64,000 bases of DNA from Candidatus Daviesbacteria bacterium (GCA_041690695.1 JBEPVZ010000001.1:14943-78942), one strand, 5' to 3'; positions 21,860-28,967 are shown, numbered from the stretch's first letter. Numbers and translations: made by a program. Notes: generated from the sequence alone by a model not told the origin.

Positions 21860-22936
21860 TTATCTAATATATCCTTTCGCTTTTAATAATTCTGCAATGA
21901 GAATTGCTCCCCCTGCAGCTCCGCGTATTGTATTATCTGATAGAGTAACAAACTTCCAGTCAAAGTGTTTATCTTTTTGTAATCTACCCATAGTAATTCC
22001 CATACCAAGTTCTGTATCCCGATCAAGTCTTGTCTGAGGACGATCCTCTTCTTCAAAATAATGAATAAATTCATTTGGTGAAGAAGGCAAATTCAACTCA
22101 CTAATTGGATTGTTAAAGTGTTTTATTGCATTCAATATCTGTTCTTTTGTGGGATTTTTGATAAAAGATAAAGAAACACAAGCCATATGACCATTAGAAA
22201 CAGAAACGCGTATGCAAGTTGCTGAAATTTCAGGTTTTTGGGCAATTTTTAATCGATCATTAATAAGCTCAGCCCAAATTTTCATTGGTTCTTTTTCTGA
22301 TTTTTCTTCCTCTCCTCTGATAAAGGGAATAACGTTATCTATCATTTCTGGCCAATTCTCGAATGTTTTCCCGGCACCTGAAATTGCCTGCAAACTCGTT
22401 ACATGTACTTTTATAGGTTGAAACTCTTTCAATGCGGTAATAATTGAAACGTATGATTGGATTGAACAATTAGGTTTTACGACAATAAAACCTTTCTTCC
22501 ATCCGTGCTTTTTCCGTTGAGTATCGATAAGTTTTATATGCCCAGGATTAATTTCTGGTATAAGCATTGGAACATCTTCCGACCACCGATTCGCCGAGTT
22601 AGTTGAAATAACAGGGATGTCACTTGATGCATATGCTTTCTCAATATACATTATCGCTTCCTTTTCCATATTCAGGGCACAAAAAACAAAGTCAACCAGT
22701 TTTATAATTTTTTCTTTATCATCAACTGCAAAAACATTGAGTTTCCCTATATTCTTAGGAATCTTTGAATCCATTTTCCATCGTCCTTTTACAGCATCTT
22801 TATATGTTTTTCCAGAAGATTGAGGAGAAGCTGCAACAACCACTAATTCAAACCAAGGGTGTTCGTTCAAGAGTGTAATGAGTCTTTGTCCAACCATACC
22901 TGTTGCACCAAGAATTCCAACTCGCAGTTTTTTCAT
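21860..22936 (-). CDS. asd: Aspartate-semialdehyde dehydrogenase
   Basis: N-terminal GILGATGMVGQ NAD(P) fold; active-site Cys in KPNCSIQ; ~358 aa. Confidence 0.75.
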   Translation of the reverse strand: MKKLRVGILGATGMVGQRLITLLNEHPWFELVVVAASPQSSGKTYKDAVKGRWKMDSKIPKNIGKLNVFAVDDKEKIIKLVDFVFCALNMEKEAIMYIEKAYASSDIPVISTNSANRWSEDVPMLIPEINPGHIKLIDTQRKKHGWKKGFIVVKPNCSIQSYVSIITALKEFQPIKVHVTSLQAISGAGKTFENWPEMIDNVIPFIRGEEEKSEKEPMKIWAELINDRLKIAQKPEISATCIRVSVSNGHMACVSLSFIKNPTKEQILNAIKHFNNPISELNLPSSPNEFIHYFEEEDRPQTRLDRDTELGMGITMGRLQKDKHFDWKFVTLSDNTIRGAAGGAILIAELLKAKGYIR

Positions 22937-22939
22937 AAG

Positions 22940-24109
22940 TTATAAAATAAGCTTTTTATGTAATGCTTTAACTATACTTTCGGAATCTTCTGAATCGAGT
23001 AAAAAACACAATCTGTAGTAATCATGTTCCTGTATTTTAATAATGTTTTTATATTCTTCAATGAATTTAGTAAACTGTTCTATAGCTAAAACAGAATTCA
23101 AATCTTCTCCTACTAATGAGATTTTACTCATATCGCTAGATATCTTTTTGAATGTAATACCCCAGAAATTATTGTTATAAGATTTTAATCTCTTTTTTTC
23201 AACGATGAGAGTTCCTTTATGCGAAGGATTAAATGTGTTTAATACTCTTATTGGAATGCCTTTTTTAATAGCAGGTTTCATTGTTTTTGGGTGAAGTACA
23301 TTTGCTCCCGAAGTAGCAAAAGCTTCAGCCACCTTGTAGGGAATTTTTTTAAGTGTTCTTGCTTCCTTAAACATTCTTGGGTCTGCAGTTAATACACCAT
23401 CTACATCTGTCCATACTTGGATTTCAAGCGCTTGTACACAACTTCCAATAATTGATGCTGAATAATCTGACCCTCCTCTACCAAGTGTCGTAACTTTACC
23501 TTCCCGAGTTGCACCAATAAAACCAGTGATTACAGGAACGATACCCTTCCTAATAATAGGTAATAATGTAGCAGCTATTTTTTTTACCGTTAGTGACGAG
23601 ATATATTCTGCATTGCCAAATTTGTCGTTAGTGACAATTATGTCAGAAGCTATCACTTGTTTTGCAGGGATTTTCCTACTTTTAAGTGCCTCTGTAATAA
23701 TATATGAGGACATGATTTCACCATATGAAGCTATTCTATCTTGAAATTCCGACGTAGATCCCGTAGGGATTTTTAATGCAATAGAAATTTCTTTTAGTAT
23801 TTTTGTAATATAAGAAATATGCTTATTTTGATCGTTTTCGTTGGACCACAACTGGTTGATCAAGACAATATGAAAATTTTTAATCTTTTGTAAAATTGAG
23901 ATCTGGAGTAAAGTTGTTGAAGATATTAATGATATTAGTGAATCAGTCACATTTTTGATAGCAGAAACTACAACAATAGGACTGTTCTGTTTCTCTTTTA
24001 TAATAATATTACCAATTGTTTGTATTGACTCTGTTGTGCTTACAGATGTACCACCAAATTTTAGGATGATCATAAAGATATAAATTAAATAATCCTTGAA
24101 ACTTATCAC
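22940..24109 (-). CDS. lysC: Aspartate kinase
   Basis: Aspartokinase signature KFGGTSV; C-terminal ACT-like region; 4 nt from asd, suggesting an operon. Confidence 0.75.
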   Translation of the reverse strand: MISFKDYLIYIFMIILKFGGTSVSTTESIQTIGNIIIKEKQNSPIVVVSAIKNVTDSLISLISSTTLLQISILQKIKNFHIVLINQLWSNENDQNKHISYITKILKEISIALKIPTGSTSEFQDRIASYGEIMSSYIITEALKSRKIPAKQVIASDIIVTNDKFGNAEYISSLTVKKIAATLLPIIRKGIVPVITGFIGATREGKVTTLGRGGSDYSASIIGSCVQALEIQVWTDVDGVLTADPRMFKEARTLKKIPYKVAEAFATSGANVLHPKTMKPAIKKGIPIRVLNTFNPSHKGTLIVEKKRLKSYNNNFWGITFKKISSDMSKISLVGEDLNSVLAIEQFTKFIEEYKNIIKIQEHDYYRLCFLLDSEDSESIVKALHKKLIL

Positions 24110-27664: not shown

Positions 27665-27665
27665 T

Positions 27666-28967
27666 ATGCCGTTGCCAATAAACAGCAAACTTATTAAACG
27701 ATACAATACGCCAATCGATGAAACGGTTATTTATGACCCATTGGCGCTAGTAACAAAAGCTAAGGGATCTTTTGTTTGGATTGAGGGACAGAGAGATCCA
27801 TATTTTGATCTTTTAATGAGTTACAGCTCTACTAACTTCGGGCATGTCAACAACGATATATTAAAATTTGTAAAAGACGCAGTAGAGAAATTTGATAATA
27901 TTATCGCATTTAATTCTGCTGCAAAAGTTGGATTAAGCAAAAAACTAGTTGACCTTTTACCCTACCCAGACAATAAGATACCGTATTTCCCTGTTGGTGG
28001 AACCAAGGCTATTGATGCTGCTATTAAACTAGCAAAAGCGTATACAGGAAAAGATGTCATAATTGCTTTTTCAGGAGACTTTCACGGTTATAGTTATGCT
28101 GCAATGTCCGTGACAGATAGTGAATATATAGAAAAATCACAATTTGGCTCATATCCTGGAAAGGTAAAACAATTTCCATTCCCTCATAGGCTCACGTTGA
28201 ACTCTTCAGAAGTGGTAAAAAATATATTAGCTAGCATTGAGAATTATTTACAAATAAATCACCATAAAGTCGCTGCCGTTATTTTTGAGCCAATACAAGG
28301 AGCTGCCGGATTTCTTATTCCTCCCGATGGGTTCTTAAAAAAATTAATTTCACTAGCACAAAAGTATGGTGTGCTTACAATCTGTGATGAAATACAAACC
28401 GGTGTCTATAGAACAGGTACATTTTACTATGTTAATCAACTTGATCTTAATCCGGACATTATTTTATTAGGAAAATCATTAGCCGGAGGTTACTATCCGT
28501 TGAGCGCGGTTATTGCGAATAAAATCATATTTGAATCAGTCGATCCAAAACATTCAGGTTTTGACTCAACTTTTGCTACAAATCTTCTTGGTATTGAAAT
28601 CGCGCACCAAGTAGTGGAATATGCTGAAAAAAAGAATCTATCTAAAGTTGTCCAAACAACAGGAAATATTATTTCATCAAAATTAAGATCCTTACTAAAT
28701 AATTTTAATTTTATTAAAGATTTTGATAGTATTGGCATGGCTTACGGCTATAGAGTTGAAGCACCATCAAAAAAAAGAGAAGACAATTCAGCTCTAGCCA
28801 CAAAAATTAAAAAAGAGGCATTTAATAACCACTTAATTATACAAACTGCAGGTTTATATGGTGATCACATGAAGCTGTCACCAAATTTTTTTATCACCCA
28901 AGAAGAAATAGATTCATTTATTACAGAATTCACATTGGTTTTAAAAAAAGTATATAGTGAAATCTGA
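27666..28967 (+). CDS. Class III (omega-) aminotransferase
   Basis: CDEIQTGVYRTG motif and PLP-lysine region LGKSLAGG; 1-nt gap from the decarboxylase, suggesting an operon. Confidence 0.7.
   Translation: MPLPINSKLIKRYNTPIDETVIYDPLALVTKAKGSFVWIEGQRDPYFDLLMSYSSTNFGHVNNDILKFVKDAVEKFDNIIAFNSAAKVGLSKKLVDLLPYPDNKIPYFPVGGTKAIDAAIKLAKAYTGKDVIIAFSGDFHGYSYAAMSVTDSEYIEKSQFGSYPGKVKQFPFPHRLTLNSSEVVKNILASIENYLQINHHKVAAVIFEPIQGAAGFLIPPDGFLKKLISLAQKYGVLTICDEIQTGVYRTGTFYYVNQLDLNPDIILLGKSLAGGYYPLSAVIANKIIFESVDPKHSGFDSTFATNLLGIEIAHQVVEYAEKKNLSKVVQTTGNIISSKLRSLLNNFNFIKDFDSIGMAYGYRVEAPSKKREDNSALATKIKKEAFNNHLIIQTAGLYGDHMKLSPNFFITQEEIDSFITEFTLVLKKVYSEI

Follow-up and report, generated by a model that had tools for sequence, protein, structure and literature searches.

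The question raised by six adjoining genes in a 64,000-nucleotide stretch of DNA from a Candidatus Daviesbacteria bacterium (GCA_041690695.1, JBEPVZ010000001.1:14943-78942; the whole stretch is called the window in the following) is what an aspartate kinase and an aspartate-semialdehyde dehydrogenase (ASD, encoded by asd) are doing beside an ATP-grasp ligase, a miniature metallohydrolase and two pyridoxal phosphate (PLP) enzymes, namely an Orn/Lys/Arg-type decarboxylase and a class-III aminotransferase. The window is AT-rich (GC 34-40% over most of its length) and its gene content is typical of a small-genome bacterium of the candidate phyla radiation (CPR). Since CPR bacteria are generally credited with next to no biosynthetic capacity, a conserved, multi-enzyme, ATP-consuming cluster in one of them is worth knowing. 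The first-pass annotation of the window proposed that the six enzymes convert aspartate, via aspartate-4-semialdehyde (ASA) and L-2,4-diaminobutyrate (DABA), to 1,3-diaminopropane, which is then conjugated to a carboxylate. We favour a more general answer, to which a probability of roughly 0.4 is given: the locus would be a ligase/hydrolase core with a modular, optional precursor supply, and its product an amide in which a basic amino acid or a diamine takes part. Equally tentative is the view of the whole as a lineage-restricted accessory cluster of the Microgenomates, whose link to aspartate metabolism is drawn from gene order in three lineages.

All six open reading frames (ORFs) lie where they had been placed (table 1), and the family assigned to each is confirmed by curated models, Pfam or fold matches. 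Counted from the called starts, the gaps between cluster genes that exceed a few nucleotides are of 125, 9 and 64 bp; the kinase ORF itself reaches 24109, upstream of its called start, and the ATP-grasp ORF opens with a GTG codon at 24184, 15 nt upstream of its own. The 1-nt gap between the decarboxylase and aminotransferase genes, from which an operon had been suggested, is real, and the two genes follow each other in the same order in three related loci (L045, L021 and L035). A scan of the window for promoters and terminators gave no enrichment over shuffled sequences.

The evidence that these genes belong together comes from their distribution. The window proteins were mapped onto 45 genomic and metagenomic loci related to this one, many being duplicate assemblies of one place; for the counting of lineages, about 24 Microgenomates loci were considered. 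Nearly all homologues of the cluster proteins are from metagenome-assembled genomes (MAGs) of Levybacteria, Roizmanbacteria, Gottesmanbacteria and other Microgenomates/Patescibacteria. Wherever a locus covers the two core genes, that of the mini-hydrolase adjoins that of the ATP-grasp enzyme, at ligase identities to the window protein of 41-72%. Over this same range of identity about 10 lineages have the decarboxylase gene adjacent to the pair, and it takes at least three positions there: downstream of the mini-hydrolase gene, divergent from it (L015) or upstream of the ligase gene (L036); loci with differing arrangements (L015, L036, L039, L045 and L021) span the whole depth of the family. 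The aminotransferase gene is adjacent in about seven lineages, while asd and the kinase gene are adjacent in only three (the window, L045 and L006/L007), with the aminotransferase present in all three.

The six-gene arrangement is more than chance, because it is repeated in L045, where the order of all six genes is identical (ATP-grasp and kinase being 72% and 48% identical to those of the window, respectively), in L006/L007, where five of the six are present and the decarboxylase is missing, and in L021, where the ATP-grasp, mini-hydrolase, decarboxylase and aminotransferase genes stand together. That the order is kept in L045 with a kinase of only 48% identity implies that the adjacency has outlasted substantial divergence. 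The pattern is, thus, one of a constant pair of core genes, joined by others in some loci and often lost: only a remnant of the ATP-grasp gene is left in L024, L040 and L041, and L020 has the mini-hydrolase by itself. The same frameshift, due either to a real pseudogene or to programmed frameshifting, splits the ATP-grasp gene of three independent assemblies (L021-L023) into ORFs of 177 and 255 aa (query residues 1-149 and 144-469); the mini-hydrolase is intact in all three, and in L021, whose contig extends far enough, decarboxylase and aminotransferase are complete as well. The nested distribution (core; core plus decarboxylase; then aminotransferase; then kinase and asd) fits a pathway the last step of which is constant.

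The same distribution bears on a rival explanation, according to which separate modules are merely juxtaposed: asd and the kinase would serve threonine synthesis or general metabolism, the decarboxylase and aminotransferase would act on a scavenged basic amino acid such as ornithine, lysine or arginine (giving a diamine and from it an amino-aldehyde) or just produce a polyamine, and the ligase/hydrolase pair would have another function. The adjacency of the genes would, on this view, have only part of its apparent meaning. Adjacency of asd and kinase in only three of about 24 lineages is what such a juxtaposition would predict, but the six-gene order common to the window and L045 despite their divergence, as well as the recurrence of decarboxylase and aminotransferase beside the pair in several arrangements, argue against it.

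Table 1. Position of the cluster genes, of other window features and of comparison loci; coordinates are those of the window unless a locus is named.
Feature	Position	Strand	Product	Basis
asd, archaeal/eukaryal type	21860-22936	-	358 aa	NF006416 and TIGR00978 above cut-off; PDB match 1ys4
Aspartate kinase with single C-terminal ACT-like tail	22940-24073	-	377 aa	TIGR00657; PDB match 3c1m
Putative PGM1/BesA-class ATP-grasp amide ligase, identical to P0001	24199-25593	+	464 aa	Foldseek structure match
Predicted miniature M42-fold dinuclear metallohydrolase without PDZ-like insert	25603-26133	-	176 aa	Fold match and metal-ligand order
Short ('ancestral-form') Orn/Lys/Arg-type PLP decarboxylase of the aspartate aminotransferase (AAT) fold	26198-27664	+	488 aa	OKR_DC_1
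Class-III PLP enzyme, uncharacterised subfamily	27666-28967	+	433 aa	Aminotran_3
Large protein with surface-type modules	11564-13684	-		
Unannotated ORF beside Imm8 gene	15854-17032	-	392 aa	
Imm8 immunity-protein gene	17070-17429	-		
ORF compared with the threonine-operon protein of equal length	19567-20190		207 aa	
M20 PepT-like peptidase gene	20242-21348	-		
tRNA-Gln(ttg)	21451-21522	+		
Large protein with surface-type modules	33087-36221	-		
ORF with weak DIT1_PvcA match	51444-52499	-	351 aa	
Open-ended stop-free frame	54662-64000	+	>3,113 codons	
Frameshifted ATP-grasp gene, L021	10534-12011			
Frameshifted ATP-grasp gene, L022	1817-3294			
Frameshifted ATP-grasp gene, L023	742-2219			
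Threonine operon, L042	6973-12080			
Threonine operon, L043	8074-12961			
Threonine operon, L044	8038-11083			

The first member of the core, the ATP-grasp protein, belongs to a family confined to Microgenomates/Patescibacteria MAGs and gives only weak Pfam matches, none of them significant; that to the PreAtp-grasp domain (PF18604) is weak in the window protein, while its homologues contain the domain. Its AlphaFold2 (AF2) model (mean predicted local distance difference test score, pLDDT, 90.8) was compared with known structures in Foldseek, and the best matches are 8ynd, PGM1 (3wvq) and BesA (8yi6), with E ~1e-23 to 1e-24 and query-normalized TM-scores (TMq) of 0.71-0.74, over the whole chain and including the pre-ATP-grasp domain; the next folds (PurD, PurK and biotin carboxylase) follow at ~1e-17, about seven orders of magnitude worse. 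Residues K213, D346, E359 and N361 are invariant. With the BesA model of NCBIfam (NF042917) the protein scores 24.5, against a cut-off of 750. On the basis of the modelled fold, it may with some confidence be taken as a cytoplasmic amide ligase of the PGM1/BesA class, which would couple a carboxylate to an amine. PGM1 itself joins a non-proteinogenic acid to the N-terminus of ribosomal peptides (PMC8939145). Literature searches on 8YND, on Microgenomates ASD and on the BesA ATP-grasp enzyme yielded nothing useful.

As the ligase finds its closest structural relatives exclusively among natural-product enzymes, the cluster could also make a dipeptide pro-metabolite or antimetabolite of the tabtoxin/bacilysin type, in which a non-proteinogenic amino acid from the aspartate pathway would be coupled to a carrier amino acid and released or detoxified by the metallopeptidase, the target being the host or the competitors of the episymbiont. 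The tabtoxin cluster indeed combines enzymes of the aspartate/lysine branch with TabA, a decarboxylase homologue, TabD, an aminotransferase, TblF, an ATP-grasp enzyme similar to D-Ala-D-Ala ligase, and TabP, a zinc metallopeptidase that matures the dipeptide (PMC3927611). Furthermore, the patchy distribution and frequent decay of the locus are common traits of accessory metabolite clusters. This explanation is nevertheless regarded as improbable, since the cluster has no conserved exporter, resistance gene or enzyme that would form a warhead (an oxygenase or beta-lactam synthetase, for instance), and the core pair mostly occurs alone.

The second member of the core, the 176-aa protein, has no Pfam match at threshold (Peptidase_M42, PF05343, gives 13 bits with a cut-off of 23.2, E 0.053), and sequence searches of the PDB returned only noise. 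Its AF2 model (pLDDT 90.7) matches the TET3, FrvX and TET1 M42 aminopeptidases (E 1.5e-6, TMq 0.63), of which it covers about half (targets of 330-360 aa; target-normalized TM-score, TMt, 0.32-0.38), the PDZ-like dimerization domain not being present. Among 27 homologues D10, D30, E55E56, D79 and H148 are invariant and H8 is conserved in at least 90%, which reproduces the order of the M42 metal ligands, H-x-D...D...EE...D...H. The earlier label of 'short M42-like' is right because of this fold match together with the conserved ligand order, and the protein would correspond to an M42 catalytic domain devoid of its PDZ-like insert. A second peptidase gene, of the M20 PepT-like type, was considered as a cluster hydrolase and left out because a tRNA-Gln(ttg) gene separates it from asd and because those related loci that are long enough to be informative do not have it.

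By analogy, the two core enzymes would be of opposing chemistry, PGM1 acylating the N-termini of peptides (PMC8939145) and M42 enzymes being aminopeptidases. The same activities, PGM1 acting on ribosomal peptides and M42 enzymes on peptide N-termini, would also suit a pair that reversibly modifies a peptide or protein by N-terminal or lysine acylation, with the decarboxylase and aminotransferase making or tailoring the transferred group. The model for this would be the 5-aminopentanolylation of elongation factor P (EF-P) in Bacillus, which is influenced both by YaaO, a short AAT-fold decarboxylase, and by GsaB, of the class-III fold (PMC5885033). The analogy is one of fold families only; the other genes of EF-P modification, ynbB and ymfI, are not seen in the window, and no gene for a precursor peptide is conserved beside the pair, so that such a role appears very doubtful.

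Among the optional genes, the decarboxylase is the most recurrent. It matches OKR_DC_1 (PF01276, 248.9 bits) and OKR_DC_1_C (PF03711, 38.2), lacks the N-terminal REC wing and carries the S-T-H-K PLP motif in its translation; the best PDB match is 2x3l, and the nearest annotated homologues, from Fusobacterium and Bacillus, are about 40% identical. The short AAT-fold decarboxylases that have been characterized are arginine, ornithine or lysine decarboxylases (ADC, ODC and LDC) or bifunctional, and pairs of them at 50-67% identity differ in specificity; many other homologues, YaaO included, are not enzymes of polyamine synthesis (PMC8503589). Since members that are 50-67% identical differ, and the window enzyme is only about 40% identical, its substrate (arginine, ornithine, lysine or DABA) is not callable from sequence. 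DABA is a known minor substrate, or side activity, of related ODCs of the AAT fold, and short ODCs correlate with ornithine/arginine auxotrophy and reliance on exogenous ornithine (PMC8503589). That the characterized enzymes are ADC, ODC and LDC, and that a dependence on exogenous ornithine would suit a symbiont, speak for the juxtaposition of separate modules introduced above.

The two genes that tie the locus to aspartate are firmly assigned. ASD exceeds the cut-offs of NF006416 (457.6 bits against 232) and of the equivalog model TIGR00978, asd_EA (336.2 against 301.2), and its best PDB match is the Methanocaldococcus (M. jannaschii) enzyme 1ys4 (E 7e-75). As a query it brought up over 120 Microgenomates clusters, with identities of 63-73%. 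The gene context could be read in three of these loci (L042, L043 and L044) and is in each a compact threonine operon with the order kinase-Hom-ASD-207aa-ThrC, of which L044 shows only the first three genes; the kinases of these operons (295-298 aa) are without ACT. The 207-aa protein, which has weak matches to P-loop kinases (AAA_33, 1.5e-4; shikimate kinase, 1.9e-3), is a candidate non-orthologous replacement of homoserine kinase. The window ORF of the same length was tried as its counterpart and dismissed, as tblastn found no similarity; with the Hom, 207-aa and ThrC proteins of L042 as queries, tblastn gave no match in the window. Indeed, hom, thrC, dapA, dapB and lysA are all missing from the 64 kb (Pfam scans; tblastn for Hom and ThrC).

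The kinase scores 313.1 bits with TIGR00657 (cut-off 208.7) and aligns best with the M. jannaschii aspartate kinase 3c1m, over residues 4-379 of 473. Beyond its catalytic domain there are about 80 residues that align to either ACT of 3c1m; in place of the two-ACT C-terminal regulatory region of aspartate kinases there is, therefore, one ACT-like segment only. This extension is shared by the three cluster-linked kinases, which are 42-48% identical to one another and 29-38% identical to the threonine-operon kinases (for the window kinase, 42-48% to those of L045 and L006 and 35-38% to the ACT-less ones). The cluster-linked kinases are, thus, a type of their own, ACT-bearing and distinct from the threonine-operon kinase. 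That the kinase is not of the latter type, and that no Hom lies between it and asd, are points against separate modules.

Alignment with 2j0w shows that the equivalents of K8, E119, R198 and D202 of Escherichia coli aspartokinase III (AKIII) are all conserved in the window kinase. These are residues that we take, from mutagenesis, to be those of catalysis and of binding the free alpha-amino and alpha-carboxyl groups of aspartate. They decide on a further alternative, namely a route with an amino-group carrier of the LysW type, in which the ATP-grasp enzyme would attach a group to the nitrogen of aspartate, and the blocked molecule would be phosphorylated, reduced, transaminated and then released by the metallohydrolase. 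The enzyme set mirrors that of LysX, LysZ, LysY, LysJ and LysK (ATP-grasp, kinase, dehydrogenase, class-III aminotransferase and MH-clan hydrolase, respectively). This route was rejected as hardly credible because the kinase keeps the residues for free aspartate, the equivalents of E119 and R198 among them; besides, both kinase and dehydrogenase score above the cut-offs of aspartate-specific models in NCBIfam, the ligase falls into the PGM1 rather than the RimK/LysX class, and the intergenic gaps leave no obvious room for a carrier gene, although small ORFs were not scanned.

The enzyme on which the conversion of ASA to DABA would depend is the aminotransferase. The protein is a clear member of Aminotran_3 (259.4 bits, cut-off 30.5) but stays below every NCBIfam cut-off: the best scores are with archaeal-type class-III models (PRK05769, 258.6 against 552), followed by the GABAtrnsam model (220 against 506), Dat (TIGR00709, 190.9 against 401.6; NF006733, 189.1 against 438) and EctB (TIGR02407, 171.2 against 552.2). 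In the PDB it is matched best by Pyrococcus amino-acid racemases and by PuuE. In an alignment with E. coli GabT, Dat of Pantoea and of Halobacterium, Salinivibrio EctB and Deinococcus RocD, its identity is 23-27% whichever of these references is taken. The enzyme of the window and its orthologues keep, as do the references, K268 (the Schiff-base lysine), D239 and Q242 (GabT numbering). The position of E211, instead, which is Glu in the 2-oxoglutarate-dependent references (QGEGG/QGEAG) and Asp in the racemases, is occupied by Ala (QGAAG): the motif is QGAAG in the copies of the window, L045, L006 and L021 and QGEGG in both Dat and in EctB. R141 is replaced by Tyr (Arg in GabT and RocD; Met or Cys in Dat and EctB) and R398 by Lys (Arg in GabT, RocD and both Dat; Lys in EctB).

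An EctB/Dat placement is, therefore, not borne out, since the enzyme fails the Dat and EctB models, is equally distant from all references and has Ala at the Glu switch. Nor does it group with the acetylornithine or GABA transaminases, a placement that had been named as telling against the proposal, given its scores below the GabT/ArgD-type cut-offs and the changes at R141, E211 and R398. In an exhaustive search it falls with a small set of proteins (P0290-P0306) that score 216-526 bits, against a class-III background of at most 190; they come from MAGs of Microgenomates, Dependentiae, Deltaproteobacteria and Clostridiales, bear generic names only, and most of them have QGA[AG]G together with Lys at the position of R398. 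Thus, it belongs to a small uncharacterized subfamily, neither of the EctB/Dat nor of the GabT/ArgD type. Because the Glu switch is missing, an amino donor/acceptor other than glutamate/2-oxoglutarate is suggested. QGAAG may resemble the corresponding motif of pyruvate-dependent amine transaminases and of BioA, a likeness that would speak for the juxtaposition of separate modules.

With these assignments the favoured scheme can be formulated. The optional supply genes would be those of the short decarboxylase, of the unusual class-III enzyme and, here, of an ACT-bearing dedicated kinase beside the organism's asd. In its fullest form, aspartate would be phosphorylated and reduced to ASA, for which the identities of the two enzymes speak directly; the class-III enzyme might then aminate the aldehyde to DABA, probably with a non-glutamate donor, and the decarboxylase might yield 1,3-diaminopropane. 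The ATP-grasp enzyme would join the diamine or the diamino acid to a carboxylate, probably an amino acid, and the mini-M42 enzyme would split the resulting amide again, so that it can be turned over or released. That ATP-grasp enzymes can couple amino acids to a polyamine is known from phevamine A (PMC6187163). In favour of the scheme are the constancy of the ligase/hydrolase pair, the recurrence of the decarboxylase, the 1-nt spacing of the decarboxylase and aminotransferase genes, the fact that asd and kinase always come with the aminotransferase, and a distinct ACT-bearing kinase retaining the residues for free aspartate, to which may be added the opposing chemistry of the core enzymes and the side activity on DABA described for this decarboxylase fold.

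Several observations weigh against this scheme, and especially against its aspartate branch. About half of the loci carry ligase and hydrolase only; asd and kinase are absent from most loci that bear other genes of the cluster, L021 and L026 included, in spite of their close kinship (71-72% ATP-grasp identity). The two PLP enzymes are also found apart, the aminotransferase without the decarboxylase in L006 and the decarboxylase without the aminotransferase in L015 and L039. Where the ligase is frameshifted its neighbours are intact, and therefore mini-hydrolase, decarboxylase and aminotransferase may work without it. The aminotransferase is no closer to DABA aminotransferases than to other class-III enzymes and is without their conserved Glu. 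Finally, the asd of the window is an ordinary Microgenomates gene rather than a dedicated paralogue, because its product is 73% identical to the threonine-operon ASD of L042 (and 56% to the cluster-linked ASD of L006) and the cluster-linked copies form no clade: in a neighbour-joining tree the three are interspersed with threonine-operon ASDs. It follows from the latter that asd may be shared with threonine synthesis.

The position of its closest ASD relatives in AK-Hom-ASD-207aa-ThrC operons and this interspersion in the tree also count for the juxtaposition of separate modules, which, set against the conserved order and the distinct kinase, is held to be somewhat less likely than the favoured scheme and is its main rival. 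Of the original proposal, then, the enzyme families, the conserved gene order and the company of the aminotransferase in all three loci having asd and kinase stand, whereas the EctB/Dat-type aminotransferase, the dedicated asd and the general presence of asd and kinase do not. The parallel that it drew with the dedicated aspartokinase of ectoine clusters holds, loosely, for a kinase that is distinct and cluster-linked.

A more specific form of the favoured scheme can be envisaged, in which the product is a pseudo-dipeptide made from aspartate and containing DABA or diaminopropane, built by the PGM1-class ligase and cleaved by the minimal M42 enzyme, and either standing in for a polyamine or acting on the host bacterium as a pro-toxin or signal; it would entail a new DABA-forming class-III subfamily and the first DABA-specific AAT-fold decarboxylase, and is deemed distinctly unlikely. 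Were the aspartate-to-diamine-conjugate reading true, it would add a new CPR metabolite, a new functional subfamily of class-III PLP enzymes and the smallest known M42-type hydrolase; if the modules are unrelated, the locus consists of ordinary threonine-pathway and polyamine genes beside an orphan ligase/hydrolase pair.

Other features of the window deserve a brief mention. The stop-free frame at its end, which runs past the last nucleotide and is missed in the ORF listing because it is open-ended, has a GC content of 42-49%, against 34-40% over most of the rest, and probably encodes part of a giant surface protein of the CPR. Fn3, CarboxypepD_reg and Ig-like C-terminal modules are common to two further large proteins, of which one has in addition DUF4185 and the other a weak LysM match; these are probably cell-surface proteins as well. 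The Imm8 gene and the adjoining unannotated ORF may be a toxin-immunity pair. The 351-aa ORF matches DIT1_PvcA (isocyanide/dityrosine biosynthesis) weakly, just under the cut-off (E 8e-6).

Among known systems, the threonine operon of Microgenomates has an asd orthologous to that of the window (63-73% identity), but includes Hom, the 207-aa P-loop protein and ThrC, all three of which the window lacks, with Hom set between kinase and asd. The ancestral-form AAT-fold decarboxylases (SpeA, aODC, aLDC and YaaO) are, like the window enzyme, of about 485-495 aa, without REC wing and of the OKR_DC_1 family; the window enzyme lies beside a ligase/hydrolase pair and not near spermidine genes or tmk. 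M42 aminopeptidases (TET/FrvX) share the fold of the catalytic domain and the metal-ligand order with the mini-hydrolase, but are about twice as long (~330-360 aa) and form a dodecamer built by the PDZ-like domain that the latter, being also below the Pfam threshold, does not have. PGM1, BesA and 8ynd (an unnamed Streptomyces ATP-grasp peptide ligase) have the same fold as the window ligase, with its pre-ATP-grasp domain, at a sequence identity of only 15-17%, and belong to an actinomycete context, while the window ligase is found in a CPR host and has no pheganomycin or Bes partner gene.

The Dat/Ddc and EctB/Ask_Ect routes from ASA resemble the locus in layout, with kinase and asd near a class-III PLP enzyme and a PLP decarboxylase, as in the window, and in ectoine clusters a distinct kinase is likewise linked to the cluster (an ectABC-aspartate kinase cluster is seen in L048). 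They differ in that the window aminotransferase fails the Dat and EctB models and is without their Glu, and in that both ectA and ectC are missing. The Ddc enzymes known so far belong to the group II decarboxylases and not to OKR_DC_1; in the reference Dat loci L047 and L050 the gene downstream of dat is annotated just as 'aspartate aminotransferase family protein'. As for the core, glutathionylspermidine synthetase/amidase and carnosine synthase/carnosinase are ligase/hydrolase pairs that act on one bond type. The likeness of the glutathionylspermidine, carnosine and phevamine A systems to the locus is one of logic only (an ATP-dependent ligase with a hydrolase, or polyamine conjugation), with no sequence relationship shown. 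Phevamine, dapdiamide and tabtoxin already exemplify the logic of an ATP-grasp amide ligase that works together with tailoring and supply enzymes (PMC6187163, PMC3927611). Against this background every enzyme of the locus comes from a known superfamily, and what is new is the gene combination, its restriction to Microgenomates, the minimal M42 family and the Glu-less class-III subfamily.

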